Assembly (NCBI GenBank): GCA_963732435.1
Contig: CAVSZL010000018.1
Location: forward strand, 24,143 to 88,142
Reading direction: 5' to 3'
DNA: 64,000 nt
DNA from: an uncultured Bacteroidales bacterium
Lineage (GTDB): Bacteria > Bacteroidota > Bacteroidia > Bacteroidales > VadinHA17
A model generated the notes under the pieces. The model was not told the DNA's origin, searched no databases, and worked only from the letters and a program-made list of their open reading frames with translations. Positions 24,077 through 63,128 of the stretch are shown piece after piece. Position 1 is the first letter of the stretch, and the number at the start of each line of letters is the position of its first letter. The position numbers and the translations under genes were made by a program.

Positions 24077-24169
24077 AGTAAAATTACAATTCTGAATGAT
24101 ACAAGCGATTTGTTTCCAGGGGCATATCCGGATAAACGGCCTGCAACAAATAAAAATAATGACAATAGT

Positions 24170-45380: not shown

Positions 45381-46350
45381 TTAATGCACTACTGTTAAAA
45401 CAACATTTCCTTTTTTATGACCTTTTTCAACATAGGCATGAGCTTCCCGTAATTCCTCTAATTGAAAATGTTTGTCAATTACAGTTTTTAATTTTCCTTC
45501 TTCAATCAGCTTTCTGATAAAATTAAGCGATTCAGTTTTATTAAGAGACATTGCAAAAATCACCCTCTTCTTATTTCCCGGTTTTGTCAGAAGTGATTGG
45601 AAAATCAGCTTAAGAGTCATTACCGTGGCAACATATTTGCCATTGCTTGAAAGAGCTTTCTTACAGTGGGAAAAAGAGCTTTTTCCCACTGTATCAAATA
45701 TTATATCGTAAATATCGCCGGTTTTTGTAAGATCTTCTTTTGTATAATCCACAACCTTATCGGCTCCCAGTGACTTAACCAACTCAATATTATTTGTGCT
45801 GCATACTCCTGTAACCTCTGCTCCGAAATATTTAGCAAGTTGCACAGCAAACGTTCCGATACTACCTGATGCCCCATTAATAAGAACTTTCTGCCCTTTT
45901 TGAATATTGGCTTTCTCTTTAAGAAAGAACAGGGCAGTTGTTGCACCATCAACAACTGAGGCAGCTTCCTCAAAAGTCATATTAGTCCGGTTTTACAGCC
46001 AGCGACCCATTTTCATTCATACATTTATACTGTGCATAACAACCCGTACCAAAGCCTCTGAATGCAAAAACTTCATCTCCGGGTTTGAACTTTTCTACCT
46101 TTCCCCCCACTGCTTCAATTATACCAGAGAATTCAGTTCCCAAGATTTGAAACTTTACTTTTGGTTTAAAGAGCCCCAATAATATTCTGCTCAGAAAGGT
46201 GTCCCCTCTTCGCATCATGCAATCGGCAGATGTAACTGAAGTCGCAAGAACTCTGATCAGAACTTCATTAGGTTCAGGTGCAGGTTTTACCCCCTCAGCA
46301 GGTTCAAGCACATTTGGAGGGCCATACTTTTTGTATACAATTGCTTTCAT
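45381..46350 (-). pseudogene. NAD(P)-dependent MDR oxidoreductase (alcohol-dehydrogenase-like) split by a +1 frameshift
   Basis: MKAIVYKKYGPP...LAVKPD* then MTFEEAA..GASGSIG; one extra base near 45983-45985 (normal reading [11 protein letters not shown]). Could be a sequencing error. Confidence 0.8.
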
Positions 46351-46484
46351 CCTATTTTTTATCAATTGGGTTTATAATAATTCCCTTAAATGACAACCAA
46401 ATCCCGAATATTATCTGAAAAATGCTGACAGGTAAACTACCGATCAGTTGAATGAATAATAAACCTGCATTTTAATCAGACTTT

Positions 46485-47604: not shown

Positions 47605-49083
47605 TTATTTTCCATTCAAATCAAATTTCCAGATACAATTGGCCCACGATTTGTCCGGTTCGTGGTATCTGAATGTTGCAGGGAAATCCGGAGCAACACA
47701 CATGGATGTTATAATCAACTTACCTTCTTTTAAAAAACTGACAGTTGGATCCATAATCCGTTGCTTTGAGCCCCCTCCGAAAGTTGAATATTCAATTGTC
47801 TTCAAACTATTGTCAAGTATTAGTACCACCAAATCCAATCCGGAATCAATTGACTGGTCCGGAGCATCTTTTGTCAAAGGAAAATCTTTGGATGCTGATG
47901 TTCCAACCAATACATATTGTTGCTTTTCGGTTTTTGCTACGTATCTTAACTGATCGGTTTTTGCACCTCCAATGAAAGTCGAATATACCGGCTTATTCGA
48001 TTTCAGATTAAATCTTGTAATAAAACCATCAGTATTACCCCCGATATACTTTTTACTTATTGCGTCTGAAGTGACCGGGAAATCGGGTGATTTTGTTTCA
48101 CCGGCGAGAATAATATTATCTGCATCTTCAAAAAAGATATAATTGACCACATCAGTTGAATCCCCTCCGAAATATGTGGAGTATTTAATCTCAGAGAGTT
48201 TTTGATTGAGGATTGTAAGAAAACCATCCTCTTTCCCCGACCTGGAATTTTGATAAGCATTTTTTGTTGTCGGGAAATTTTCAGAAATAGTCTGACCTGC
48301 GAGAATAAGTTCTCCTTTTGAGCCGAATGAAAATGACCTAATGAAGTCCATGGAATTTCCTCCCAGATAAGTAGAGTATAAAACCTTATCAAGATTTAAA
48401 GATAAAGATGTAATTGTTATGTCTCCTGTTATGTAACGGTTATTATAATCAGGTGGAGCAGAATTATCATATTCCTTTTGAATGACGTCTTTAGTAGTGG
48501 GATAATCCTGAGATTTGGTTTTACCAATTAAATAAAGGCTCTTTTTATTGACAGATAATCTTGTCCAGTGATCACCTCCTGAACCTCCCAGGTAGGTAGA
48601 TGAGATGTATTTGCAATCATTGGAGAACTTGATAATATAATGATCATTTTCACCCTTAATTGTTTTTTGGTAAGCATTATCAGAGACCGGCAAATCCTTT
48701 GAATCGGTTGTAAAGCCAACATACACATTACCAAAATCATCAAGGGCCATCTGTAAACAGTAGTATTCTGACCCTGATCCGCCAATATATGTTGAGTAAA
48801 TTAATTCTCCGCCTGGTGAAAGTTTCATTAAAAATGCATCACCTCCGGTAACATCATCAGGAGTATATCCTTTATAGCTTTTTTGGAAAGCATCTGCAGT
48901 AGTCTTTAATCCTTCTCTTGCACCACCGGCAACAAATATATTTCCATTTTTGTCCACTACAGATGGAGTAGAGGTGTGGGCTCCACCACTGGAAGCTAAA
49001 TAGCCTGAAAAATCTATTTTCCGGGCAAAAGTGCCTGTTATGATTCCCATAAAAAGCAAAGAGGTGATAATAATTGTTTTCAT
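47605..49083 (-). CDS. SBBP (beta-propeller) repeat exported protein
   Basis: Repeated YSTY(I/L/F)GG and G.T.S.DFP.T..A.Q motifs. Confidence 0.85.
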   Translation of the reverse strand: MKTIIITSLLFMGIITGTFARKIDFSGYLASSGGAHTSTPSVVDKNGNIFVAGGAREGLKTTADAFQKSYKGYTPDDVTGGDAFLMKLSPGGELIYSTYIGGSGSEYYCLQMALDDFGNVYVGFTTDSKDLPVSDNAYQKTIKGENDHYIIKFSNDCKYISSTYLGGSGGDHWTRLSVNKKSLYLIGKTKSQDYPTTKDVIQKEYDNSAPPDYNNRYITGDITITSLSLNLDKVLYSTYLGGNSMDFIRSFSFGSKGELILAGQTISENFPTTKNAYQNSRSGKEDGFLTILNQKLSEIKYSTYFGGDSTDVVNYIFFEDADNIILAGETKSPDFPVTSDAISKKYIGGNTDGFITRFNLKSNKPVYSTFIGGAKTDQLRYVAKTEKQQYVLVGTSASKDFPLTKDAPDQSIDSGLDLVVLILDNSLKTIEYSTFGGGSKQRIMDPTVSFLKEGKLIITSMCVAPDFPATFRYHEPDKSWANCIWKFDLNGK

Positions 49084-49203: not shown

Positions 49204-50121
49204 TTATATCCTTATAGAATGCTGAAGTTTCTCAGCGATCCGGATAGTTTTTTCGTTCCTGCATAGCTCAAGGCTGGTTTTCCATAGCCTCTCCTGCATA
49301 TCATGGTCAAAAACGATTTTGTCTTCGACTAGTTCAATAAAACCATTCCTTTTCCATGTGATAAACTTCCCTGACCTCTTCATACTTTCCTCCTGGTTTT
49401 CAGTGAATAAAGGAGCCATTATCTTCCCGCATTCCTCTATTGAAATAAATGTGCCAAAAAACTTCATTATGGATGCCATCGTTTTCATTGAAACCGGAAT
49501 AATATTAACCTGATTGCTCCACACGGTTTTGGATATTTCGAATCCGATAAAGGATACTTTAGATCCCTGCGATCCTCTGTACAGATCATTTAACTTAACA
49601 AGGAACATTCTCTTGGCAAGCATTGCCTGATGGATCCCCTTTTCGAAACTCCAGTTTCTTTTCATCTGGATGTCGTCCCAGAATATTTTGCCCCCCCGGG
49701 TGACATTGAATATTACTCTTCCTGCAGTCTCCGAGTTTTCAAGAAGGTTCAATAAATTTAAAGTCAGCATAAATTGAGACAAATAATTTACCTGAAAATG
49801 TGGATCCATTCCATCTTCAGTTTCTACTCGTTTTGCAGCATAACCCAAGCCTGCATTTATAAATATACAATCCAGAAACTTATGTTTATTTTGAATTTCG
49901 CTGATTGCAGCCCTTACATCAGAAAGTTTAGCCAGGTCGCATAAGATTACTGATATCTTTTTATTTGTTGTGGCACTTTCAAATTCCCTGATTGTTGCCT
50001 CACCAAGTTCTTTAGATCTGCACAGCAAAATAACTTCATGAATCTGGTTGTCAATTCCAGCCAAAACTTTGGCGACTCCTTTTCCCATTCCGTTAGTGCC
50101 ACCAGTTATTAGTATTTTCAT
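49204..50121 (-). CDS. Short-chain dehydrogenase/reductase (retinol-dehydrogenase-like, atypical active site)
   Basis: ITGGTNGMG, CDLAKL, INAG, FQVNYLSQF; the usual YxxxK position reads HQAMLAK. Confidence 0.85.
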   Translation of the reverse strand: MKILITGGTNGMGKGVAKVLAGIDNQIHEVILLCRSKELGEATIREFESATTNKKISVILCDLAKLSDVRAAISEIQNKHKFLDCIFINAGLGYAAKRVETEDGMDPHFQVNYLSQFMLTLNLLNLLENSETAGRVIFNVTRGGKIFWDDIQMKRNWSFEKGIHQAMLAKRMFLVKLNDLYRGSQGSKVSFIGFEISKTVWSNQVNIIPVSMKTMASIMKFFGTFISIEECGKIMAPLFTENQEESMKRSGKFITWKRNGFIELVEDKIVFDHDMQERLWKTSLELCRNEKTIRIAEKLQHSIRI

Positions 50122-50144: not shown

Positions 50145-50789
50145 TTAAAAATTGATCCCTATATACAAGTTTGGTTCAAAGAGAAGGTAGTTATTCCAGT
50201 TGCTTTCCATCTCTTCAAAACCCTGGGGGCCTTCACTGTCAACGGGCCAGTAATTGCAATGAAATTGCGGTTCAATATATAATCTGTTTTTAAACAGGGG
50301 AATATGATAACCAAGATGATAGGAGGTATATAATTTGAAACCATTATCTATTTCTTCATCGTTCTCATCAAGGTATGTCTTCTTTAATGGCAATAGCTCA
50401 ACGGCGACAAACAAGCCTTTCCATAGCAGGCGTTGATAAGTAACTCCAATTCCACTTTCTTTGATTCTGCCGGGATAGAAATTATTCTCATCGAACTTTA
50501 GCTGCTCCTGCATTGGCATACCCATTGGAGCGAATAGTTTCCATGTAGCCACTTTGAGTCCGAATTTGTCTTTGGGTGTAAGTTTATATCCAAAATGGAA
50601 CTCGTAATGGTGTGTATTTGTTTCCTCTGGACCAAAATTCATAAACATCAGATAAGTGGTGCCTGCTGAAAATTTGTAATAAGGAGTAGCCTTCCGGGCA
50701 AGCCCATTCCTGGTTTTCGAATCGTTCTGGCAGAATGCCATTGAAGCAATAGTGCCAAAGATTAATGCGGTTGAAATCATCCTTTTCAT
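50145..50789 (-). CDS. Hypothetical outer-membrane beta-barrel protein (paralog B)
   Basis: Signal peptide, amphipathic strands, C-terminal YIGINF; similar to 51196-51786. Confidence 0.75.
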   Translation of the reverse strand: MKRMISTALIFGTIASMAFCQNDSKTRNGLARKATPYYKFSAGTTYLMFMNFGPEETNTHHYEFHFGYKLTPKDKFGLKVATWKLFAPMGMPMQEQLKFDENNFYPGRIKESGIGVTYQRLLWKGLFVAVELLPLKKTYLDENDEEIDNGFKLYTSYHLGYHIPLFKNRLYIEPQFHCNYWPVDSEGPQGFEEMESNWNNYLLFEPNLYIGINF

Positions 50790-50804: not shown

Positions 50805-51032
50805 TTATTTAATGCACTTTTTATTTTCATCGTTATCAGCAGGATTTATGGAGATCAGCTTAAGGTTTAAATCCCTGATTATATTTAATATCCCGTGTAA
50901 CTGAGCCTCATCCTTAATCTGCCCCGTCAGTATGGTATTATTTCCTTCGTAACTGATATTCATACCCTCAAAACTGTTTTTCCAGTTTTTATCAAGCTGC
51001 CCCTGAATTGATATTTTAATTCTTCCTTTCAT
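50805..51032 (-). CDS. Small conserved ACT-like protein, copy 3
   Basis: IQGQLDKNW...FEGMNISYEGNNTILTG..KDE..LHGILNIIRDLNLKLISIN; start moved to MKGRIK. Confidence 0.85.
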   Translation of the reverse strand: MKGRIKISIQGQLDKNWKNSFEGMNISYEGNNTILTGQIKDEAQLHGILNIIRDLNLKLISINPADNDENKKCIK

Positions 51033-51084
51033 ATAATTATTTGTTTTGTTCTCAGCAAAGGTCGGGTACTCTCGACCGGTAAAA

Positions 51085-51118
51085 ATCACCCCCAGGGGTG
51101 ATATTGAGGGTGATTTTT
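51085..51118. promoter_or_regulatory. Candidate MalT-like operator, copy 3
   Basis: ATCACCC-CCAG-GGGTGAT-ATTGA-GGGTGATTTT upstream of the small gene. Confidence 0.7.
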
Positions 51119-51195
51119 ATTACAGAGATTTTTTGAATTGTATTTCGGCATACCCCTTTTTAAGTTGCAATTGCAGATAATGAATCAAAGCGGGA

Positions 51196-51786
51196 TCAGA
51201 ATCTGAATCCAAAATTCAGTGCCGGTTCAAATTTATATTCAGGTGCTCCGCTTTCAATTTCTGCAAAGGCTTCAGGAAAGTTTGTATTTACAGGCCAGTA
51301 TTTAAGAGCAATAGCAGGTTCGACAAAAATCCTTTTATTAAAAAATTCAAAGCGGTAACCTGCTATAAATTGAAGATACAACTGGAATCCATTCTGTATT
51401 TTTGTGCCATTGGGATCATAGAATTGCTGAAGAAAAAAGGTTGGCTCGAAGGTTGCATATGCGTTCTTCCAAAGGAACCTCTGATAGCCCAATCCAATTC
51501 CGTAGGCAGTTACTTTACCCGGATAAAATTCTTCAGAGGATCCATATGTGCCTACTGGTTCATAGTATGTCCAGGTTATAGCTTCGGCAATAAGATTATC
51601 CTTTGGGGTTAACCGGTAACCGTAGTTTAATTGAAAGAAGTTGACCGAATCTCCGATATTACCAAGCAGGAAAAGTGAACTTCCGACTGAATGTCGGTTG
51701 AAATCAGCTTCTTTATTTGCAGTTTGACATAATGCTATTGTTGAAAATAGCACAATCATTAATGTTGTTGAGATAAAATTTTTCAT
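51196..51786 (-). CDS. Hypothetical outer-membrane beta-barrel protein (paralog A)
   Basis: MKNFISTTLMIVLFSTIALCQ leader; GYRLTPKD, G.GYQRFLWK, C-terminal NFGFRF; start moved from 51849. Confidence 0.75.
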   Translation of the reverse strand: MKNFISTTLMIVLFSTIALCQTANKEADFNRHSVGSSLFLLGNIGDSVNFFQLNYGYRLTPKDNLIAEAITWTYYEPVGTYGSSEEFYPGKVTAYGIGLGYQRFLWKNAYATFEPTFFLQQFYDPNGTKIQNGFQLYLQFIAGYRFEFFNKRIFVEPAIALKYWPVNTNFPEAFAEIESGAPEYKFEPALNFGFRF

Positions 51787-51875
51787 TTTTGGTGCTTTAT
51801 TAGTCAGTTTATTAATCCTTTCTGTTTTCTTTTGGTTTTCTTTCAGCAAAGATCAGGTACAACCAAAAAAGAAAA

Positions 51876-51909
51876 ATCACCCATGCGGGTGATTTACAGG
51901 GTGATTTTT
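51876..51909. promoter_or_regulatory. Candidate MalT-like operator, copy 2
   Basis: ATCACCC-ATGC-GGGTGAT-TTACA-GGGTGATTTT immediately after the regulator stop. Confidence 0.7.
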
Positions 51910-51927
51910 ATGATTGCTTTGCTGGTT

Positions 51928-54612
51928 TCAGATCAAACTGAGCTCTTTAGCTTTCTTCACAGCCATAATGCGGTTCTCAACACCAAGCTTCAGATAAATA
52001 CTCTTCAGGTGAGTTTTAACGGTATTCTGGGAAATAAATAATTTTTCGGCAATTTCCAGATTCGACAGATCAAGGGCAATAAGTTTTAAAGTATCAAGCT
52101 CACGGGAACTTATTATTGTTTCAAAATTTGTCTTTCTCAGGCAGTTTTTGCTTTCCAGAGCCTGTTTCAGGTTTTCTATGAACTTCCCGGAGATATTGGT
52201 TTTAGTTGTAGCATGTATTTTAAATACATCTTCTAATAAATCGTTGATATTGACATAGCTGAATACAAAGAAACCTAGTAAATTCTCAGCAGAAGCAATT
52301 TCCATGGCTTCAATTAAATTTTGAATTGCATTTTTACGATCGCTTCTCCTGATAAAGTAATCAGCAGACAGTAATTTTAGCTCAATCATTCTTTCAATCC
52401 TTTTTCCTTCACTTACCGAGGTATAAAGCTCCATAATTAAAGCTTCAGCCTCATCCAGTTTTCCCTGTGCAAGTAATAGTTTAGCATATGAAACAAAGTA
52501 CGTTTCATAAATATGCGTTTTCTTATTTTCTAACCCTATTCCATGATCCGAAAAAAGTTGGCTTGCCTCCTCAATTTTGTTATGATCTAAAAAGTATTGT
52601 GTTTTCACTGATATATACAATGAAACTAAAAATGGAGGAACTTTGTTTTGTCTTATTAATTCATCCAATTCAAACCTTCTCTTTTCTGCCTCAATATCTC
52701 CGCGCTGGTCGAGCAGAGATGCGTAAATCATTAATGCCATTGTCTTTATATAGACATCATTACCACATTTGGTTAGATTATAAGCAATCTGAATATTATT
52801 AAAAGCCTTATCCATTTGTACCCACATCGATTCTGTTATCCCCAGAATAAGGTAAAGTGCAGCAAACGTCCATTCGGTTTCAGCTAGCTTACCATATCCC
52901 CTGTTTTTAATATAGGCCTGGAGTTCGGTACATTTTTTATACGCCAGCTTATAATGCCCCAACTGTTGTTCGTTTTCAGCCATTCGAATAATAATAGTTG
53001 AGATAAGATAAATATTACCTGATTTTTTGGCATAATCAAGTGCATTACTGAATGCTTTGCTACCCATCTGTAATTCGCCAGCAGAAAAATATGACACACC
53101 GTATGAAAACCATGCCCAGCTATTCCAGAATGGATCATCCTCTGATATGTTTTCCATGGCTGTTTCGCAATATTTTAATGTCTGCTCAGATTTTCCTTCA
53201 CTGGAATGCATATAAGCAAAGGCAACGCAAATTTTCCCGAGTAGTTTTTTGTGGTAGTGGATATCTTCCTTAGAAAAACTTTTATTCTGAATAATATTTT
53301 TTATCCTGAGTTCAGCACTTATCAAAAAAGGTTCTGCTTTCTGAATCTGACCATTTGAAATCAATATCCATGCATAGTATAAACAGAATTCCGGATTCGT
53401 TTTAATCAGCTCATCGGGCAGCATATCACCATATTTCAAAATGGCAGAATGCATTCCTTTTTGCCACATATCGCCGGCTACCTTACCCAGTAGCTGAATG
53501 CATTTATCATAATTCTGAATTGCCAGTGCATGCTCAATTGCAAATTCATTCATATTGTTTATCTCGAACCAGTCGCTGGCTTTATTATGAAGGTTATTTG
53601 TTGCATCCCGTCCCCGATATTGAAGTTTTTGTTTTAATACCTGTGCAAACAGATGATGATATCGGTACCAGGTCCTTTCATTATCCAAAGGAATAACAAA
53701 CATGTTATTTTTTTCAAGTGATTCAATAATCTGCTGACTGTCATTTCTGTTAAAAACAGCATCACATAAAGGAGCTGACATTTGTTCCAGTAAAGATGTT
53801 TGAAGCAGAAATTCTTTTACGTCATCGGTTTGAATCTTTAATACTTCCTCCACAAGATAATCCATTATATAGCGGTTATCTCCCTTTAAATCCTGAATGA
53901 ATTTGGAAATATCTTCACGGCCCTGCATAGAAAGAGCTGTTATTTGCAATCCTGCAATCCACCCTTCTGTTTTAGTTTCAAGAGAATAAACATCATCAAT
54001 TGATAAGCCTATTTTTAACCTTTTATTAAACAATATTGAAATATCATTTGCCGAAAAACTAAGATCTGAAGAGCGTAACTCGACCACCTGGTGTTGACTT
54101 CTTAATCGTGAAATTGACAGAGCCGGATCTGATCGTGTAATTATTATTATATGGATATTGTCAGGAATACGATCTATTAAATATGTAACCAGTTTAAGGA
54201 TTTCGCTATTCCCGATTAAATGAAAATCGTCGAGAACCAAAAAGAAGTGTTGGTTGAGACTTATTAATTCGTTGATCAGTAAGCCCGCAATAGATTCGAC
54301 AGACGGTGAATTGGGTGAATTTATCAGATGAAGGGCATTCTGCCCGTATTCGCGGTGAATAGTCTGAATTCCTGCAATTATATAGCTTAAAAAGACCGCC
54401 GGGTCGTTATCGCCATTGTCAAGTGAAAGCCATGCAGCAGGAATTTTGTTTAGCCTTATCCAATCGCTTATTAACGTTGTTTTACCGTACCCGGCAGGTG
54501 CTGAAACAAGAATTAATTTCCGGCTCAGACCTGTGTTTAATTTTTCACACAGATCAGGCCGGGAAACAGTATTCTTTCCGGTCGCAGGAATATGAAGTTT
54601 CGTTAAAAGCAT
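51928..54612 (-). CDS. MalT-like STAND ATPase / TPR / LuxR-HTH regulator, copy 2
   Basis: LLTKLHIP, SAPAGYGKTT (Walker A), LVLDDFH (Walker B), TEGWIAGLQ, WYRYHHLF, C-terminal SSRELDTL...NLEIAEKLFISQNTVKTH. Confidence 0.93.
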   Translation of the reverse strand: MLLTKLHIPATGKNTVSRPDLCEKLNTGLSRKLILVSAPAGYGKTTLISDWIRLNKIPAAWLSLDNGDNDPAVFLSYIIAGIQTIHREYGQNALHLINSPNSPSVESIAGLLINELISLNQHFFLVLDDFHLIGNSEILKLVTYLIDRIPDNIHIIIITRSDPALSISRLRSQHQVVELRSSDLSFSANDISILFNKRLKIGLSIDDVYSLETKTEGWIAGLQITALSMQGREDISKFIQDLKGDNRYIMDYLVEEVLKIQTDDVKEFLLQTSLLEQMSAPLCDAVFNRNDSQQIIESLEKNNMFVIPLDNERTWYRYHHLFAQVLKQKLQYRGRDATNNLHNKASDWFEINNMNEFAIEHALAIQNYDKCIQLLGKVAGDMWQKGMHSAILKYGDMLPDELIKTNPEFCLYYAWILISNGQIQKAEPFLISAELRIKNIIQNKSFSKEDIHYHKKLLGKICVAFAYMHSSEGKSEQTLKYCETAMENISEDDPFWNSWAWFSYGVSYFSAGELQMGSKAFSNALDYAKKSGNIYLISTIIIRMAENEQQLGHYKLAYKKCTELQAYIKNRGYGKLAETEWTFAALYLILGITESMWVQMDKAFNNIQIAYNLTKCGNDVYIKTMALMIYASLLDQRGDIEAEKRRFELDELIRQNKVPPFLVSLYISVKTQYFLDHNKIEEASQLFSDHGIGLENKKTHIYETYFVSYAKLLLAQGKLDEAEALIMELYTSVSEGKRIERMIELKLLSADYFIRRSDRKNAIQNLIEAMEIASAENLLGFFVFSYVNINDLLEDVFKIHATTKTNISGKFIENLKQALESKNCLRKTNFETIISSRELDTLKLIALDLSNLEIAEKLFISQNTVKTHLKSIYLKLGVENRIMAVKKAKELSLI

Positions 54613-54817
54613 GCGTGAAATTAAGAAATATTTTGATTGTGGAAATATTTTTTTCTTATGAAAATCAGCAGCTTGGAGATAAATTCATGAGATTTGCCGG
54701 CAGGCCGGACTCCATTTCCCTGAGTAGTTGTTTTGCAAAATTTACTCAAAAAGAAAACGATGCAGTTTATTCAATCAATGAAGTATATATTAAGCTGTCG
54801 CATAAAATGATAAGTGG

Positions 54818-55624
54818 TTATGACTTTCTTACACGAAGCAGGTTGATTAAGATTCCTGTTAAGAATGTCAATATTGACCAGATCCAAAAACGTGGCTGAG
54901 ATACATTCTCTTGCAGAACTAATGTTGGTAATAGGGGAATAAAAGCATTTGCAAGTCCATGGGCATAAAGTCCTGAGAATGGTCTGTTGCCTGAGATTTT
55001 CCTGATCCATGAAAGAATGAAGGAATAACCGACTATAAGGAGAACAAAACCTCCGAAATTCATATAGGTCTGACTTGAACCTGTAATAAACCATAAAGGC
55101 AGATGCCAGAAAGCATGTATGATCCCTAAAATAATGTTTGCATACCAAATTCCGAACTTACTTTCAAGAATAGGAAGAGCATAGCCCCTCCAGCCAAATT
55201 CTTCCTGTCCTCCGCCAAGAAGAATCATAATGAATAAATAAGGAATAAATAACCACACCGAAGGCAGTAACATTGGCAATCGTTCTTCCCCGAATAATTC
55301 AGGAAGAAACCATGCAATAAATGTACTACCTCCGAATATAAATATCGGAAGAAGGTAAGCTTTCCATCCTAAACGAAAATCAAGAAAACTCCGCAGATAC
55401 TTTCTTGCAGAACCCTTGCCATTTTCCTTATTTAGAGCAAAGAGTGCACCTGCAAGCGGACCAAAGACACCTATCATAATTCCGGGTATTGTCAGGATTG
55501 ATAATAATTTATCTGAAACAGGAATGATCCTGTAGCTTGCAAGGATAATCGGAGTCCAGATTATCCACGACCAAACAAAGGTCATTATAAAGAACCGGAA
55601 AGGGAAGCGAACATTACTTTTCAT
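54818..55624 (-). CDS. CPBP (CAAX/Abi) family intramembrane metalloprotease
   Basis: GGQEEFGWRGY, FWHLPL, LYAHGLAN. Confidence 0.92.
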   Translation of the reverse strand: MKSNVRFPFRFFIMTFVWSWIIWTPIILASYRIIPVSDKLLSILTIPGIMIGVFGPLAGALFALNKENGKGSARKYLRSFLDFRLGWKAYLLPIFIFGGSTFIAWFLPELFGEERLPMLLPSVWLFIPYLFIMILLGGGQEEFGWRGYALPILESKFGIWYANIILGIIHAFWHLPLWFITGSSQTYMNFGGFVLLIVGYSFILSWIRKISGNRPFSGLYAHGLANAFIPLLPTLVLQENVSQPRFWIWSILTFLTGILINLLRVRKS

Positions 55625-55662
55625 AATCAGGGTATAATTTTGTATTATGATGTGATGTCATA

Positions 55663-56622
55663 CTATTTAGTACTATGACTTACAGTTATTGCCACACCAC
55701 CTTTTTTGTGGCCTCTGCCCACATAGGAATGTGCTTCCACAATTTGTTCCAGTGGAAATATTCTGTCGATGACTGGCTTAATATGTCCTGTTTCAACCAA
55801 CTCTTTGAGTGATGAAAGTCGATTTGAGTCTAACATAAGGTTTCCATCATCGATTGATACATATTTCCCTCCCGCAGCAAGTGCTTTTTTGCAGGCATCT
55901 TTTAATTTTGAAGATTTACTTTTACCAACCGCATCAAGAATAAAATCGTATTTCACTCCCTGGCTAAGCGTATCCTCTTTGGTGTAATCAATTACTTTAT
56001 CAGCCCCCAGTGATTTCACCAATTCTAAATTTGCTGTACTGCAGACAGCAGTTACTTTCGCCCCCAGGTACCTGGCATATTGGATTGCTGTTGTTCCTGT
56101 TGTTCCGGAAGCTCCATAAATAAGCACTTCCTGTCCGGGCCTGATATTTCCCTTTTCCATATATTGAAATGCCAGAAGGCCTCCATAGGCTGCCACAGTT
56201 GCTTCTTCAAAGGATATGTTATCTGGCTTAATAGCCAAACACCCATTCGTAGAATCTGTCTCTTTCATGCATTTGTACTCAGCATAAGCGCCAAGTCCAA
56301 ATCCGGTAAGCCCATAAACCTTATCCCCTGGTTTAAATCTCTTTATATTTTTACCTGTTGACTCAATTTCTCCAGCCAGCACTAATCCGATTATTGACTT
56401 TCTTGGTTTTGTCAATCCTATCGCCAGTCGCATCAGGATCCAATATTTAATGGGTATTTGTGAACCCCGGATGAAGATGTCGCTGGCTGTAACAGCTGTT
56501 GCAAATATTTTTATAAGTACCTCATCATCTTTGGGAGAAGGTTTCGCTACTTCCTTTAGTTTAAGAACCTCAGGCGGACCATATCTTGTGCATACAATGG
56601 CTTTCATTCTGTCAGAGTTCAT
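55663..56622 (-). CDS. NAD(P)-dependent MDR oxidoreductase (alcohol-dehydrogenase-like)
   Basis: MKAIVCTRYGPPEVL, GAYAEY, IYGASGTTG, VIDYTKED, PVIDRIFPL; paralog of 45381-46350. Confidence 0.92.
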   Translation of the reverse strand: MNSDRMKAIVCTRYGPPEVLKLKEVAKPSPKDDEVLIKIFATAVTASDIFIRGSQIPIKYWILMRLAIGLTKPRKSIIGLVLAGEIESTGKNIKRFKPGDKVYGLTGFGLGAYAEYKCMKETDSTNGCLAIKPDNISFEEATVAAYGGLLAFQYMEKGNIRPGQEVLIYGASGTTGTTAIQYARYLGAKVTAVCSTANLELVKSLGADKVIDYTKEDTLSQGVKYDFILDAVGKSKSSKLKDACKKALAAGGKYVSIDDGNLMLDSNRLSSLKELVETGHIKPVIDRIFPLEQIVEAHSYVGRGHKKGGVAITVSHSTK

Positions 56623-56936
56623 TTTTTAAGCTTTAGATTTGAAAAAATTCTCGATACAGTATTAGATCTTTCCTCCGGATTTATCGAAATAAGTATCAGG
56701 TTATAATCCCTTATGATATTTAAAACTTTATGCATATGTGATTCATCCTTAAGTGTTCCTGTAAAAATTGTATTGTTTCCTTCATAGCTTATCTCCATAC
56801 CCTCAAAGCATTCCTGCCATTTGCCATTCAGATGCCCCTGAATTTTTATTATAGTCATGCCCCGTAATTTTAATTTTCGTTTCATTATTGCCAGGGTTGA
56901 AACTATTCCAATAACTATCCACATGGTCTCAGACAT
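56619..56936 (-). CDS. Small conserved ACT-like protein, copy 2
   Basis: IQGHLNGKW...FEGMEISYEGNNTIFTG..KDE..MHKVLNIIRDYNLILISIN; stop overlaps the downstream ATG (ATGA); start uncertain. Confidence 0.8.
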   Translation of the reverse strand: MSETMWIVIGIVSTLAIMKRKLKLRGMTIIKIQGHLNGKWQECFEGMEISYEGNNTIFTGTLKDESHMHKVLNIIRDYNLILISINPEERSNTVSRIFSNLKLKK

Positions 56937-57632
56937 TTAAAATCCTGATCCTTTTTAGTGTCATATATCGGACAGGCTGTTGAGGAGCATTTCATCCTGC
57001 CCTGAAGGATTCTTACCCCCCAGGGAATATATCCGGCACACATTAACAAAGCACCGGTTGCACTTATTAATTCTATATCAGGATTGTTAAGTAACAGAAG
57101 GCCTGTTATGATGCATACTGCCTGCCATTTGCTTATATACCTTTCTTTTAATAGTCCAAGTGCCTGTATTGCTGCACCTACCGTTAATAATGGCAGTAAC
57201 CAGACTATCCAGAGTAATCCTTCCTTGTTTACAATTACACTCAGAAAAGGAACAAACGCCTGAAACTGATCCTCAGGCAAAGTGTCGAATGCTGACAGTA
57301 CCAGGCATAAGGCACCCTTATCGACAGCCAGAATGAATGCTCCGAATAAACCAATAATGCCACCCCAAAAACCCAGGCTTTTACCTTTTCCCTGCAATAC
57401 ATTCATAAAACTAATGAGCGCTATCATAATTACCGGGACAGCAAACATTACTATTAAATGTCCGATATGGTAATATGGGCTGATTATGAAACCTTCCAAC
57501 CAGCTGTTCTACAGTATGAAGTGCCTCAAGTTTCAGGAGATTAGGGTGCATTAAAAAGCCAACCAGCAACATTACAGGGAATGCAATAATTGATAATGCA
57601 AAACTCTTCTTTTTAATTTCTTCAATTTTCAT
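56915..57632 (-). pseudogene. Membrane protein (DUF4386-like, tentative) split by a +1 frameshift
   Basis: ORFs 57411-57632 and 56915-57499 join as ...VGRFHNQPYYHIGHL... if one C of a CCC run near 57477-57480 is removed. Confidence 0.7.
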
Positions 57633-57655
57633 GATTTTATAATTTCAATTTTTTG

Positions 57656-60091
57656 TTAAAAATATACCCGGTACATTAAGTTTGGAAAAAATCCAAACGC
57701 AGTATTATAGCCGACTTTACCCGGCTTACTCTCATCGTAATATTCAGCCAATCTGGCCTGATTGTTTGTAAGGTTCATCAGGTCCAGGAAAATTTCGTGT
57801 GTAGCCATTGGTTTGTTGAACTTATAGCTAACCGATAAATTCAGGCGAAAAATATTGTCAAGTTTATTGTTATATGCTTTGCTATAGTCAAAATATCTGT
57901 CGTTTTCGGGTTCAACAGCTACATTTCCCTGAGAATCTCTTATTAAAGGAATATACCGCTGGCCGCCTTCAAAGAAAATTTTTGTATTCAATGCCAGGGT
58001 CTGGTTTTGTTTTTTACCAAGACTTTTAAACTCTTTCCCAAATAAAAAATTCACAATATATTTGTTATTATACCGGGTATTTCGCCATACCCCTTCCAAC
58101 GATTTGTATTTCGAATCGAATAGAGAACTATTCACTAAAAAGTAGAAATTCTTATCAAAAAACCGTTCGAGGGAAATTTCCAGCCCGTAGTTCTTACCAA
58201 TGCCTTTATTAACCAGTTCAACATATTTATAATCTATGCCTTCGTTAATAGTGGAATAAAAACTGGTGTCGTTGTTTTCAACTGGTAAATTGTAAAGAGA
58301 CTGGTAGTATACTTCAATTTTCCCCACTAAATTTTCCGTAATGCGTTTTTCATAACCTAATACATAATGATGGGCCTTTAACAATCCGAGATTTTTATTA
58401 GGTTCAATGTAACTGCCATCGTTTTGCGGGATTTTGGTAAAATAGTTATGTACACTTTCTGTTGTGCTGTGCATACCGTATCCTGCATGCAATGAATTGG
58501 TTTTATTAATATTCCAGTTTATGCTTAATCGGGGTTCAAGTGTGTTTATATTATTGCTTAAAATATTCAGGTTATGTAAACCGGCCACAATAATAATTTT
58601 CTCATTAAAGCTGTGTTTCCAGCTTATATAATTATTTATTGTACTTAAATTATTTTTAAAGTCATTAACATTTATTAAAGAAGCTTCTTCATTACTATAG
58701 ATGTTTTGATTGTAATTGAAGTTATAAAGTGTGTATTTTGTGCCAATTTGAATTTTGTTTTTTGCATTGATTTTATTACTGTAAGTAATTGCCCCTCTGA
58801 TTGCTGAATTCACAATCCTGCTTTGAATCATATGCATTCTTGGAGAAAGGGAATCGTATACTGACTCTCCTTCGTTGGTGTATGTCCTTATTGTATCCGT
58901 CTCATATATATCATCGTTGGCGTTAGTTCCTGAATAGTTAATTGACGTTTTAACAAAGCTTTTTTCGTTAAGTGACAAGACATGGTTCATTCCAAGATTA
59001 GCCAAAGAATTTGCCTTGTAAAAATCTTTACTGGTAAGAGCATTGGATGTTGGTCTGCCTGGTGTGGAAAGACCCTCTGGCCCCATATTATCCATTGAAA
59101 AACCACTTAAACCTCCCAATCCGTAGAAGGAAAAAGTACCTGTTTTTTTAGTAGGCAGAAGTATTTTAAAGGTAGCATCCTGGTAATTCACAACTCCGGG
59201 AACATCCACCAGGCCCATTTTATTAATCAGCGAAATTGTAGAATACCTGTAATTAAAAAGGTATGACCCCGCATAGCCATTTTTAAAAGGACCTTCCAGG
59301 GTAAGTTCTGTCCCCATTAAGCCAATCCCTCCGGTTGCTTCAAACTTTTCGTTATTTCCCGGCCTGAGTTTTACATCGTAAACACAGGATATTACATCAC
59401 CAAATTCTGATGAAAAGGCTCCGGTATAAAAATCAGAAGTGGCTAATAAATTATTATTAAGAGCTGTAAGCGCTCCAAAAGAGGAGTTTTGATCATCCAT
59501 ATGGTACGGACTTGAAATTTCTGCTCCTTCCAAACGCCATTGCATATATTTGGGTGAGTTTCCCCTTGCAATTATGTCACTGCTTCCAGATGGCGTACTT
59601 GCCACACCTGCAAAAGATGATACTACACGTGCAGGATCGTCCATCCCGCCGGTAAAACGCTTGGTTTCTTCAAGTGTGATGGAATGTGTACTTAGCTGCG
59701 ACATGTCGTTTATTGCTTCGCCTTTTTTCTTGTAAGCTTTAATAACGATTTCATCCATTTTTAAAACAGATTCCTGCATTGTTAAATCCAGCACTACTTC
59801 CTTGCCGGAATTTACCAAAATATCTGATATTGACCTTGTTTCATAACCCAGGTAAGATATTTTTATCGCTATTCTGCCTATAGGGATGTTGTCAAATCTA
59901 AAGATCCCATTCATGTCTGTTGCAGTACCAATTAATGGATCGGTTCCAATTATTATCACTGTCGCACCTATGAGCGGCCATTTGTTATCATTGTCAATTA
60001 TGGTTCCCCGCACTGTTTGTTTGAGGTTTTGACTAAAAGCCAATGTTGTTAACATAGCAATTATTAATGTCGTTGAAATAATCCTTTTCAT
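57656..60091 (-). CDS. TonB-dependent receptor with CarboxypepD_reg-like N-terminal domain
   Basis: TVRGTIID...PLIGATV, SYLGY, DDPARVVSSFAGV, RGNSP, LEG.EI..P.H plug; C-terminal YRVYF. Confidence 0.9.
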   Translation of the reverse strand: MKRIISTTLIIAMLTTLAFSQNLKQTVRGTIIDNDNKWPLIGATVIIIGTDPLIGTATDMNGIFRFDNIPIGRIAIKISYLGYETRSISDILVNSGKEVVLDLTMQESVLKMDEIVIKAYKKKGEAINDMSQLSTHSITLEETKRFTGGMDDPARVVSSFAGVASTPSGSSDIIARGNSPKYMQWRLEGAEISSPYHMDDQNSSFGALTALNNNLLATSDFYTGAFSSEFGDVISCVYDVKLRPGNNEKFEATGGIGLMGTELTLEGPFKNGYAGSYLFNYRYSTISLINKMGLVDVPGVVNYQDATFKILLPTKKTGTFSFYGLGGLSGFSMDNMGPEGLSTPGRPTSNALTSKDFYKANSLANLGMNHVLSLNEKSFVKTSINYSGTNANDDIYETDTIRTYTNEGESVYDSLSPRMHMIQSRIVNSAIRGAITYSNKINAKNKIQIGTKYTLYNFNYNQNIYSNEEASLINVNDFKNNLSTINNYISWKHSFNEKIIIVAGLHNLNILSNNINTLEPRLSINWNINKTNSLHAGYGMHSTTESVHNYFTKIPQNDGSYIEPNKNLGLLKAHHYVLGYEKRITENLVGKIEVYYQSLYNLPVENNDTSFYSTINEGIDYKYVELVNKGIGKNYGLEISLERFFDKNFYFLVNSSLFDSKYKSLEGVWRNTRYNNKYIVNFLFGKEFKSLGKKQNQTLALNTKIFFEGGQRYIPLIRDSQGNVAVEPENDRYFDYSKAYNNKLDNIFRLNLSVSYKFNKPMATHEIFLDLMNLTNNQARLAEYYDESKPGKVGYNTAFGFFPNLMYRVYF

Positions 60092-60139
60092 GTCTGTCAG
60101 ATATATTTAATTATTGAAAAACTTATTATTATGTTATTC

Positions 60140-60337
60140 TTATACCGAATTAATCGATATCAGTTTCAGGTTTAAATCCCTTATGATATTTAAAACTCCG
60201 TGCATATGAGCTTCGTCTTTTAGATTTCCAGAAAGAATTGTATTGTCTCCTTCATAGCTAATCTCCATACCTTCAAATCTGTTCTTCCATTTTTTATCAA
60301 GGTGTCCCTGAATTATTATGTTAGTCTTACCTCTCAT
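60140..60337 (-). CDS. Small conserved ACT-like protein, copy 1
   Basis: IQGHLDKKW...FEGMEISYEGDNTILSG..KDE..MHGVLNIIRDLNLKLISIN; start at MRGKTN (60358 also possible). Confidence 0.85.
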   Translation of the reverse strand: MRGKTNIIIQGHLDKKWKNRFEGMEISYEGDNTILSGNLKDEAHMHGVLNIIRDLNLKLISINSV

Positions 60338-60372
60338 GTTCTGATTGATTAAATTCACTGGTAAAATTCGGT

Positions 60373-60424
60373 ATCACCCGACAAAAAAAAATCACCCTCG
60401 CGGGTGATTTGATGGAGTGATTTT
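60373..60424. promoter_or_regulatory. Candidate MalT-like operator, copy 1
   Basis: ATCACCC (60373) ... ATCACCC-TCGC-GGGTGAT-N6-GAGTGATTTT between regulator stop and small gene. Confidence 0.7.
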
Positions 60425-60446: not shown

Positions 60447-63128
60447 CTAAATCAGGCCTATATTTTTTGCTTTAGAAACAGCTTTTACCCGGCTGTCAAC
60501 TTCCAGTTTCAGAAAGATATTCTTTAAATGTGTTTTAATGGTATTTAACGAGATAAAAAGCTTATCCGCAATTTCCTGATTTGACAAATTACTTGCTATA
60601 TACTTAATTATCTCTATTTCCCTGCTGCTCAGCACATCTATATTAGTCATTTTCAAAACTTTCCTATGCCTTTCAATAGCAACCTTAATATTTTCGATAA
60701 ATTGAGGCGGTATTTTTTCGATATAAGCAGGTTTCTTAAAGATTACTGTGAGTAAATCTTCAATTTCACCGATATTATGTATAAAAAACATAACCAGCTT
60801 CTCTGCCGCAGCGTGTTCTAATGCATCGATCAGCTTCTCGTATGCTTTATCGAAGTCGTTTGTCACTTTATAATAAATTGCATAGATAACTTTTACGGCA
60901 ATTAATCTTTCTACTCTTTTGCTGGTATATGTAATTTCATGTAATTGAAAAAGGATGCTACCCGCTTCTTTATTTTGTCCCTGTACAAGAAGATAATAAG
61001 CATATGCCAGGTATACTGCCTCATTTAGGTGATCAATTTTATCTGTTGGGCAGAGTTTTAATTTATTGACAATTAATTTTGCCTTTTCTTCTTGCTTCCT
61101 GTTAAGATAAAACATCAATTTTAAAGATTGTAACATATTATACAGATAGGGCAAAAGTTGATTGTTCTCGCAAAGTTTCTCCGCTTCAAGAATCATCAGT
61201 TCTGATTCCTTTTCTTCACCCCGTGTACTCAATACCATAGAATTGAGCAGGAGTACTGATATTCCAAGCATAATATCTTTACTTTCTTTGTACATCCTGT
61301 AAGCTATCTGCGCAGATTCATATGCTTCATCAGTGTTGCCCCACATATAATGAGTATTGCCAATGGTGACATGTAACCCGGCATATGACCAATCCGAATT
61401 GACAATGTCAGAATAGCCATTATCATTCATATATGTAATAAATTCTGCGCATTTCTCATAAGCTGAGCGATAATGCCCAAGCTGTTGTTCGCTATCTGAC
61501 ATCCGTTGTGCAACAGTGGAGATAAGATGTATGTTATGCGATTGTTTGCCAAATTTGAAAGCTTCATTGAAGGAATTTATACTTTCTGACAGATCACCCA
61601 GACTAAATTGAGCCATGCCAAATGCAAACCATCCCCATCCCAGCCATGATGATTCTTCAGTTCTCAGGTTGTCAAGTGCAATTTTAAAATATTCAATTGT
61701 CTTAGCAGGATTATTTAACTGGGAATGTAAATATGCAGAAGCAACTGTAATTTTACCCCATAAATTCTTTTTATCAGAGCTGCTGTTGTTCAGAATATTA
61801 TTATCGTAATTGCTGTCAAAAAATGTTTCAGCATCATTTAAAAAGATTGCTCCTTTCTGAACCTGCCCTGAAATGATCAAGACCCATGCATAGTATAAAC
61901 AAAAGTTTACATTTTTCTTTATTAACTCTTCCGGCAATATGCTTCCATAGTTCAAAATCGCTACATGATGCCCTTTCTCCCACATTTCTTCAACCACACT
62001 ACCAATCAGTTGTATGCTTTTTTCATGATTTTGAATAGCAATTGCATGTCTAATGGCAAAAACAAACATTTTGTTATTGACAAACCAGTTACAAGCTTTA
62101 TTGTGAAGTTCAATAATGACTTCTTTATATCTCAATTGAAGTCTTTGTTTTAGTAAATCGGCAAACAGATGATGATATCTATACCAATTTCTTTCATCAT
62201 CTAAAGGAATAACAAACATGTTATTTTTTTTCAGTACCTCAAGAGTCTGCTGACTGTCATTTCTATTCAAAACAGTGTTGCATAAAGGAGCCGACATTTG
62301 CTCGAGTATTGATGTCTGTAATAAGAATTCTTTGATGTCGTCGGGTTGAATTTTCAGTACCTCTTCCATCAAATAATCCATGATATAGCTGTTATCTCCC
62401 TTTAAGTCCTGAATAAATTTAGAAGTATCTTCACGACCTTGCATTGATAAGGCCGTTAACTGAAGGCCTGCAATCCAGCCTTCGGTTTTGCTTTCGAGCA
62501 AATTAGCATCCTCAATCGATAATTTTAATTTTAGTTTTTTATTAAAAAGTATTGAAATATCATTTACTGAAAAACCAAGGTCTGATGAACGTATTTCTAT
62601 TAATTGATGTTGACTTCTTAGCTTTGAAATAGAAAGTGCAGGGTCGGAGCGGGAAAGGATTACAATATGGATATTAACAGGAATACGTTCTAATAAAAAA
62701 GTTACTAATTCCAATATATCACTGTTTGTGATTAGTTGAAAATCGTCGAGAACTAATAAAAAATTTAGTTTAATCTGGAGTAAATCGTTTATCAATAAAC
62801 TAACAATTGATTGGTTCGGGGGTTTGTTGGGAGAATTTAAAAGTGTGATTGCGCTTTGTCCAAATGCTGAATGAATACTTTGTATCCCGGCAATAATATA
62901 GTTAAGAAATTCTACCGGGTCATTATCGGCTTTATCAATAGAAAACCAGGCGGTTGGAATTTTATTTTGTTCAATCCAGTCACTCACCACAGTGGTTTTA
63001 CCAAATCCGGCAGGAGCAGAGAGAAGAATCAGCTTTCGACTTAGTCCGGTGTTCAGTTTTTCAAACAACTCTGACCTGTGAACTGTGTTATTTCCTGCAG
63101 GAGGAATATGTAGTTTTGTTAATAGCAT
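60447..63128 (-). CDS. MalT-like STAND ATPase / TPR / LuxR-HTH regulator, copy 1
   Basis: SAPAGFGKTT, LVLDDFQ, TEGWIAGLQ, WYRYHHLF, LSSREIEI...NQEIADKLFISLNTIKTH. Confidence 0.93.
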   Translation of the reverse strand: MLLTKLHIPPAGNNTVHRSELFEKLNTGLSRKLILLSAPAGFGKTTVVSDWIEQNKIPTAWFSIDKADNDPVEFLNYIIAGIQSIHSAFGQSAITLLNSPNKPPNQSIVSLLINDLLQIKLNFLLVLDDFQLITNSDILELVTFLLERIPVNIHIVILSRSDPALSISKLRSQHQLIEIRSSDLGFSVNDISILFNKKLKLKLSIEDANLLESKTEGWIAGLQLTALSMQGREDTSKFIQDLKGDNSYIMDYLMEEVLKIQPDDIKEFLLQTSILEQMSAPLCNTVLNRNDSQQTLEVLKKNNMFVIPLDDERNWYRYHHLFADLLKQRLQLRYKEVIIELHNKACNWFVNNKMFVFAIRHAIAIQNHEKSIQLIGSVVEEMWEKGHHVAILNYGSILPEELIKKNVNFCLYYAWVLIISGQVQKGAIFLNDAETFFDSNYDNNILNNSSSDKKNLWGKITVASAYLHSQLNNPAKTIEYFKIALDNLRTEESSWLGWGWFAFGMAQFSLGDLSESINSFNEAFKFGKQSHNIHLISTVAQRMSDSEQQLGHYRSAYEKCAEFITYMNDNGYSDIVNSDWSYAGLHVTIGNTHYMWGNTDEAYESAQIAYRMYKESKDIMLGISVLLLNSMVLSTRGEEKESELMILEAEKLCENNQLLPYLYNMLQSLKLMFYLNRKQEEKAKLIVNKLKLCPTDKIDHLNEAVYLAYAYYLLVQGQNKEAGSILFQLHEITYTSKRVERLIAVKVIYAIYYKVTNDFDKAYEKLIDALEHAAAEKLVMFFIHNIGEIEDLLTVIFKKPAYIEKIPPQFIENIKVAIERHRKVLKMTNIDVLSSREIEIIKYIASNLSNQEIADKLFISLNTIKTHLKNIFLKLEVDSRVKAVSKAKNIGLI

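Follow-up and report, generated by a model that had tools for sequence, protein, structure and literature searches.

A candidate tripartite operator of MalT-like STAND regulators in uncultured Bacteroidales and its covariation with the recognition helix

The palindrome ATCACCC-N4-GGGTGAT, accompanied by a third half-site, occurs three times in a stretch of 64,000 nucleotides (hereafter the window; positions 24,143 to 88,142 of contig CAVSZL010000018.1, assembly GCA_963732435.1) from an uncultured Bacteroidales bacterium of the VadinHA17 lineage. The genes of this region are all on the minus strand, and two of them, whose products are 54% identical, code for MalT-like STAND regulators: regulator 1 (893 aa; 60447..63128) and regulator 2 (894 aa; 51928..54612). 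An initial annotation of the DNA had proposed that the palindrome is the binding site of these regulators. Here we describe the element, its distribution in relatives and its covariation with the DNA-reading helix of the neighboring regulator, which together make it very probable that the element serves as operator in a compact unit of operator and promoter.

Regulator 1 unites a Walker A NTPase, a MalT-type tetratricopeptide repeat (TPR) sensor and a C-terminal LuxR/GerE helix-turn-helix (HTH) in a single protein of about 900 residues, as expected of a STAND activator, and recovers the Pfam models TPR_MalT (1.5e-25) and GerE (3e-19), along with AAA_22/AAA_16. The NCBIfam MalT model NF003420 aligns with both proteins end to end (residues 4-890 of 893 in regulator 1), with scores of 405 bits for regulator 1 and 425 bits for regulator 2 against a cutoff of 537. 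Identity to E. coli MalT is 25% over 852 aligned residues for regulator 1, and 25-27% over about 855 for the pair, whose Walker A motif reads SAPAG[FY]GKTT where MalT has SPAGYGKTT. As the scores fall below the equivalog cutoff and the islands that harbor these genes have no maltose genes, the proteins are members of the MalT family and not orthologs of MalT itself. Their recognition helices are encoded close to the 3' ends of the genes, NTIKTHLK at 60522..60545 (minus strand) in regulator 1 and NTVKTHLK at 52003..52026 (minus strand) in regulator 2, each with an asparagine and a second lysine at the positions that we discuss below as specificity positions. In regulator 1 these residues are Asn862 and Lys869, within an HTH domain of about residues 825-893. 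A third paralog (53% identity; C8:294080-296719 of this genome) is cut at residue 881 by the end of its contig, and its 3' flank, along with any operator located there, falls outside the assembly.

An exact search recovered the palindrome at 51085-51102 (site A), 51876-51893 (site B) and 60391-60408 (site C), the three places reported in the initial annotation, and its impression that the motif is missing from the rest of the window was upheld with zero further matches even when up to two mismatches were permitted. Shuffled windows gave a mean of 0.23 matches and reached three or more in 0 of 100 shuffles. The whole 4.8-Mb assembly has 4 copies in total, all at one gene family; the fourth (C19:3236-3265, on another contig) stands ahead of a further paralog of the small gene described below, with no regulator gene 5' of it. 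A wide spread over unrelated loci had been regarded as fatal to the operator proposal, and the genome scan instead placed every copy at this one gene family. The same scan found no direct-repeat or inverted-repeat half-site pairs besides these 4 copies, and in particular none upstream of either regulator gene that might point to autoregulation. Two copies lie, as had been noticed, immediately past the MalT-like genes, site B 34 nt beyond the stop codon of regulator 2 and site C 38 nt beyond that of regulator 1, and all three precede genes: small genes starting at 51032 (site A) and 60337 (site C) and an outer-membrane-like gene starting at 51786 (site B).

Read on the minus strand, each copy displays the same order: AAAATCAC(C/T)C, 5-6 nt, ATCACCC-N4-GGGTGAT, a T run, a -7 box and the ATG. 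At site A, which has the 196-aa outer-membrane-like gene and no regulator on its 5' side, the upstream half-site TCACCC (51108..51113) is followed by the palindrome ATCACCC-CTGG-GGGTGAT (51085..51102) and the -7 box GACCTTTG (51056..51063). Site B likewise comprises TCACCC (51899..51904), ATCACCC-GCAT-GGGTGAT (51876..51893) and the -7 box GATCTTTG (51847..51854). Site C is made up of the half-site TCACTC (60415..60420), the palindrome ATCACCC-GCGA-GGGTGAT (60391..60408), an adjoining T8 run (60383..60390) that is a candidate both for a weak -33 region and for a terminator U tract, a fourth element GGGTGA (60374..60379) located past the T run and ahead of the -7 box, and finally that box itself, GAATTTTA (60362..60369), of the TAnnTTTG type. 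On the plus strand the third half-sites thus read GGGTGA (51108-51113), GGGTGA (51899-51904) and, with one mismatch, GAGTGA (60415-60420), at spacings from the palindrome of N5, N5 and N6, respectively. The TCACTC form and the spacer CATCAA of site C are common to the entire clade of regulator 1. Two statements of the initial annotation therefore need amendment. The 4-nt spacer of the palindrome is identical in length, being always 4, and differs in sequence (CCAG, ATGC and TCGC on the plus strand at 51085, 51876 and 60391). The third half-site is indeed present in each copy; it does not, however, follow the palindrome, since the genes are on the minus strand and it is the most upstream element. 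The additional half-site reported at 60373 proved real on re-reading the sequence (60373-60379).

The distance from the palindrome to the -7 box is exactly 21 nt in all three window sites, and that from the box to the ATG is 23-60 nt, and about 25 nt in the general layout of the module. In Flavobacterium, the Bacteroidetes sigma-A box TAnnTTTG sits at -12 to -5 (PMC9723704). With the start placed accordingly, the 22 nt between the end of the right-arm hexamer and the TAnnTTTG-type box would put that end at -35, and the fixed distance would place the palindrome at about -51 to -34 (site C included) with its center near -42.5, abutting a poor -33 element, and the upstream half-site of site C at about -63 to -58. 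Such a position would be that of a class-II activator. Across 98 unique sites, a [TG]AnnTTT[GA] box lies 21-22 nt past the hexamer in 87, some sites carrying the perfect Bacteroidetes sigma-A -7 element TAATTTTG; the half-sites, T run and box are strongly conserved and rich in information, in which the N4 loop and the spacer are poor. Transcript 5' starts and 3' ends were also sought in RNA data: no usable run of this organism or of a near relative was found, and two sediment metatranscriptomes yielded only short contigs of relatives with uninformative ends. One sub-clade (L063, L069, L081, L082 and L095, the L numbers denoting loci) has 1-4 tandem units of about 24 nt (TTTTCTCATGACCGAAGGGAATAAC) between the -7 box and the ATG, which extend the leader of the small gene up to about 150 nt.

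To trace the module in relatives we scanned 201 genomes of the host family, with the reversed pattern as a control. The palindrome was found in 21 genomes and the control pattern in 0, and 16 of the 21 show the complete layout, which is shared by 32 sites; the matches in the other five (L002, L003, L005, L017 and L021) are due to chance, having no third half-site, box or regulator. Regulator homologs of at least 50% identity are present in 16 of the 201 genomes and a well-formed motif in 16, with both in 15. One of the two discordant genomes (G199) has a regulator and a degenerate site beside a decayed small gene. The other (G135; L033 / L012, G135:C4:277831) has an intact motif and no regulator, together with a frameshifted small gene, a truncated outer-membrane gene and a split short-chain dehydrogenase/reductase (SDR) gene, and looks like the remnant of a decaying module. 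The islands carry 1-4 regulator genes, each with the motif on its 3' side, and additional copies stand at internal operon heads, co-oriented with the genes; the cargo 3' of the small gene differs among loci, and some islands include pseudogenised regulators. A second search, blind to the motif and seeded by the small protein only, recovered 79 loci, mostly from uncultured Bacteroidales, with 77 unique upstream regions. The complete tripartite motif is present in 71 of these 77 and the palindrome alone in 5, typically 14-50 nt past the point where a MalT-like regulator gene stops. A Draconibacterium isolate is among the carriers of the module. Site A, the C19 copy (C19:3248), L009, L019 and others lack a regulator gene 5' of the motif. 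We found no clean relation between the spacing of the first two half-sites (12 or 13 nt from start to start) and either the regulator clade or helix residue 191.

The most telling evidence comes from the regulators themselves. The half-sites fall into three classes, TCACCC/GGGTGA, TCACTC/GAGTGA and TCATCC/GGATGA, and the class tracks the recognition helix of the adjoining upstream regulator. All 53 unique regulators with the Asn/Lys pair (...N-T[VI]K[TS]H-x-K...) are accompanied by a GGGTGA right arm. Replacement of the asparagine by glutamine or histidine goes with TCACTC/GAGTGA (L045, L046, L118, L060, L063), and replacement of the second lysine by arginine with TCATCC/GGATGA (L038, L042, L068, L076, L074), the Fisher p being about 8e-7 for each association. 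The Thr/Arg regulator of L074, which has the same pair as E. coli MalT, uses GGATGA. The change in the GGATGA and GAGTGA classes usually extends to the upstream half-site, which lies outside the hairpin. In a gap-free alignment the asparagine corresponds to Ser185 of NarL and the second lysine to Lys192. The base contacts of NarL alpha9 are made by Lys188, Val189 and Lys192 (PMC10853779); the two covarying positions are removed from Lys188/Val189 by one and two turns of the helix and belong to the major-groove-reading face of alpha9. We therefore propose, from the covariation, a recognition code in which Asn/Lys would read GGGTGA, a first-position Gln or His would read GAGTGA, and a second-position Arg would read GGATGA. 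As both window regulators have the Asn/Lys pair, they should share all four GGGTGA sites of the genome; a site common to both paralogs is what the initial annotation had supposed.

A FastTree phylogeny of the regulator protein without its last 75 columns, i.e. with the HTH removed, showed the variants scattered among Asn/Lys types as their nearest relatives (L060 is 82% identical to L075 and L068 86% identical to L048, with L118 sister to L113), so that, on these topologies and nearest-neighbor identities, each helix change appears to have had at least three origins. The C-termini of the variants are likewise closest to those of Asn/Lys types, which leaves the import of a variant HTH and its operator as one recombined cassette unsupported. 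In a prospective scan of metagenome contigs for AATCATCC-N4-GGATGATTTT, ten tripartite sites had a regulator that could be identified on their 5' side, and it carried arginine in 10 of 10; these span several sub-lineages, and two non-tripartite matches belong to unrelated proteins. When 401 genomes of the order were scanned in the same way for the GAGTGA class, they returned one match, a chance palindrome in unrelated sequence, the sample being too thin. Two specificity classes can occur on a single contig, each beside its matching operator (L063 with L069; L045 with L049, L058 and L061), and in such mixed islands His or Gln with GAGTGA stands next to Asn with GGGTGA.

We consider it very likely, on comparative grounds, that the motif is the operator read by the LuxR-type HTH of the adjacent MalT-like STAND regulators. 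The specificity of the motif, its distance to the -7 box and the copies without a regulator gene support this proposal of the initial annotation, and the covariation of the half-site with two residues of the DNA-reading helix in several independent lineages is decisive. By analogy with MalT, binding of a ligand and ATP would make the regulator multimerise, whereupon the inverted pair would be filled by two protomers and the upstream direct repeat by a third. RNA polymerase would then be recruited in class-II fashion and the operon switched on, this operon nearly always opening with a 65-75-aa protein of ferredoxin-like fold and continuing with variable outer-membrane or oxidoreductase cargo.

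Several observations weigh against this interpretation. The HTH codons are only about 150-200 bp from the motif, and therefore co-transfer by recombination might make the independent events seem more numerous than they are. The left arm is TCACTC next to two Asn/Lys regulators (L039, L061), C·A mismatches occur between the arms of three sites, asymmetric or mismatched sites are seen at L039, L061, L062 and L102, and at L032, with an Asp/Arg regulator, the arm is a degenerate GAGTGAA and the adjacent gene is decayed. The palindrome arms mostly change together, as an RNA hairpin would also demand, and complementarity to the right arm is a property of the upstream half-site as well. At the promoter, the first base of the -7 box is usually G where the consensus has T, and the fourth element, GGGTG, is moderately conserved in relatives and constant across the half-site classes. 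Since it remains GGGTG in the GGATGA and GAGTGA classes, it is unlike a true regulator half-site, and we have dropped it as a candidate for a fourth one.

The palindrome also has the shape of an intrinsic terminator, and the initial annotation itself named an RNA hairpin acting only in this capacity as the reading that would overturn its proposal. Such an element would serve solely to end the transcript of the upstream gene, and would be conserved through joint duplication of the 3' end of the regulator gene, the hairpin and the small gene. On the coding strand it comprises a 7-9-bp stem, a 4-nt loop and then T5-T9, a stable G+C-containing hairpin with a U tract 3' of a stop codon; two of the three window sites, B (51895-51874, minus strand) and C (60410-60389, minus strand), pass a terminator-like scan, the T run of site A being only T5; the RNA folds are stable, with z-scores of -3.4 to -4.7, most copies stand 14-50 nt past a stop codon, and the arms show compensatory changes. 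Yet in a terminator the sequence of the stem is free, whereas here it is invariant or falls into three discrete classes over about 100 sites in which the loop and flanks drift; neither the upstream half-site nor the fixed 21 nt to the -7 box has a rationale in termination; and the stem tracks the DNA-reading residues of the neighboring regulator, the prospective scan included. Moreover, the motif is present where no regulator gene lies upstream and is therefore not merely the terminator of that gene, and distant regulators (29% identity) precede direct repeats with no hairpin. It is thus on the fixed stem, the extra half-site, the box distance and the HTH covariation that the terminator-only account fails, and we regard it as very unlikely. 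That the hairpin and T run of the operator might in addition end the transcript of the upstream gene, thereby insulating the regulated operon, is a separate matter, on which we find the probabilities about evenly balanced.

The distant regulators just mentioned (L034 and L036, from genus g18 of the same family) have the helix EATVKRHTIT and are associated with ACACCTT-N4-ACACCTT direct repeats, a TAGTTTTA box and a gene whose product is distantly homologous to the small protein; the repeats are probably a different operator in the same circuit design.

The motif goes with the small gene (71 of 77 regions) even more closely than with adjacency of a regulator, which would suit binding by some other factor, such as the small ferredoxin-fold protein, an alternative sigma factor or a host regulator, with the MalT-like proteins acting elsewhere. 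However, the fold of the small protein is not a DNA-binding one and a search of the PDB gave no match at E < 1e-3, no sigma factor gene accompanies the islands, and neither the dependence of the half-site class on the HTH residues of the regulator nor the resemblance of the half-site to known MalT boxes is accommodated by this scenario, which we judge quite unlikely. The variable cargo after the small gene, and the islands with several copies and pseudogenised regulators, might also bring to mind the footprint of a mobile or recombining element, e.g. the end of a miniature inverted-repeat transposable element (MITE) or a cassette recombination site, that shuffles cargo between islands. Against this, the orientation of the motif and its distance to the promoter box and the ATG are constant, neither target duplications nor terminal inverted repeats were seen on either side of a unit, the genome has only 4 copies, all at one gene family, and the HTH covariation would be left unexplained; hence, this origin appears extremely improbable.

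Beyond the operator reading itself, the islands can be imagined as parallel circuits: paralogous activators with at least three helix-operator specificities (Asn/Lys-GGGTGA, Gln or His/Lys-GAGTGA, and Asn or Thr/Arg-GGATGA) that are insulated from cross-talk, with a palindrome that doubles as the terminator of the regulator gene and a two-residue code that can be rewired. Taken jointly, these propositions are a tentative extension that we think somewhat more likely to be wrong than right. Should they hold, the module would be a natural, compact terminator-operator-promoter cassette with a two-residue code rewirable at will.

The genes that would be controlled by the three window sites are led by small and outer-membrane-like genes, all on the minus strand. 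Sites A and C and the C19 copy head paralogs of the 65-75-aa gene, and site B heads the 196-aa outer-membrane-like gene (51196..51786), which has no Pfam match and a signal-peptide-like N-terminus. Downstream of site C, the operon opens with the 65-aa version of the small gene (60140..60337) and continues with an 811-aa outer-membrane receptor-like cargo gene containing a CarboxypepD_reg domain (57656..60091). Site A is followed by the 75-aa paralog (50805..51032), a 214-aa outer-membrane-like gene (50145-50789), an SDR (49204-50121) and a beta-propeller protein (47605-49083). The AlphaFold2 model of the small protein (predicted local distance difference test, pLDDT, 90) shows a beta-alpha-beta-beta-alpha-beta ferredoxin-like fold of the HMA/ACT/PII-like kind, and searches against Pfam and NCBIfam returned no family for it. 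Because it is paired with MalT-like regulators even at 29% identity (L034), it may act as a modulator of the regulator, much as MalY, MalK and Aes act on MalT. The site C operon also contains a third paralog (56619-56936), a version of 105 aa with an N-terminal extension, without a motif of its own; its 67-72-aa versions are the first gene after the motif elsewhere (L026, L028). Further along, a zinc-type alcohol dehydrogenase (45381-46365) is split into two adjacent open reading frames, with ADH_N at 45982-46365 and ADH_zinc_N at 45381-45980, and is probably an interrupted gene. Near-identical modules, with the same motif and small proteins of 69-83% identity, are also found on short contigs of metagenome-assembled genomes labeled Desulfobacterales, Ignavibacterium, Chlorobiota and Saccharibacteria (L047, L091, L105 and L115), for which mis-binning is more likely than transfer across phyla.

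MalT-like (LAL/STAND) regulators are common and yet almost unstudied in Bacteroidota, and a literature search for a described MalT-like operator from Bacteroidetes found nothing relevant. The present analysis provides such regulators with a likely regulon of four promoters in this genome, which head operons for the small ferredoxin-fold protein and outer-membrane or redox cargo. It also offers a probable code, two helix residues reading two bases, that fits E. coli MalT as well, and candidate orthogonal activator/operator pairs that might serve as genetic tools in Bacteroidales.

One of the closest precedents is E. coli MalT itself. The boxes of E. coli and Klebsiella MalT conform to GGGGA(T/G)GAGG, with the core GGA(T/G)GA (PMC7567727), and MalT multimerises upon binding of its inducer and occupies its boxes cooperatively (PMC4381067). 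That the half-site GGGTGA is one base off the MalT box, as remarked in the initial annotation, holds true, and the natural Arg variants carry exactly GGATGA, with E. coli MalT having Arg at the same position. Several boxes including a direct repeat are also in evidence here, with two direct repeats and one inverted half-site in the 71 of 77 regions. The two systems further share the end-to-end architecture of the regulator (Walker A NTPase, arm, TPR-like sensor and LuxR HTH; 25-27% identity), and the predicted place of the element here resembles that of the promoter-proximal one of several sites in E. coli, which abuts the -35 region (PMC7567727, PMC4381067). In contrast, the Bacteroidales regulators are not orthologs, have no mal genes nearby and would act on a Bacteroidetes -33/-7 promoter through a perfect inverted pair with a 4-nt spacer and a single upstream direct repeat; the site lies right after the stop codon of the regulator's own gene, and the likely regulon consists of the small ferredoxin-fold protein with outer-membrane and oxidoreductase genes.

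A second parallel is MalT of Actinoplanes sp. SE50/110 (ACSP50_3915), which recognizes TCATCC-N5-GGATGA, an element that overlaps the -35 region and ends 34.4 nt before the start, and which activates a 51-gene region unrelated to maltose (PMC7567727). Both cases present a palindromic pair of MalT-type hexamers, with a 3' end measured at 34.4 nt there and predicted at -35 here, and in both the motif is repeated at many promoters of one non-maltose island holding more than one MalT-like regulator gene. The Bacteroidales element differs in its N4 in place of N5, its main half-site TCACCC in place of TCATCC, with G as the third base of GGGTGA, its upstream half-site, its T run and its hairpin-terminator shape, as well as in phylum and promoter type; moreover, our case is built on comparison of genomes and theirs on deletion and overexpression transcriptomics.

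The predicted geometry also resembles that of NarL/FixJ-LuxR activators, in which a dimer of LuxR-type HTHs binds an inverted repeat near -42 to -44; the covarying residues here align with the reading face of NarL alpha9. The lux box is centered at -42.5. NarL activates from an inverted repeat centered at -43.5 (PMC10853779). These proteins are, however, response regulators or autoinducer receptors and not STAND ATPases, and their half-sites and spacings are different (7-2-7 heptamers in NarL). Finally, the element shares with Rho-independent terminators its 7-9 bp stem, 4-nt loop and coding-strand T run after a stop codon, and departs from them in a stem sequence that is fixed over about 100 sites, comes together with an extra half-site and a promoter box, and tracks the recognition helix of a protein. 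In sum, the module very probably belongs to the known kind of MalT-box operators and brings no new regulatory principle; what it adds is a natural recognition code and a compact, terminator-like operator-promoter layout.

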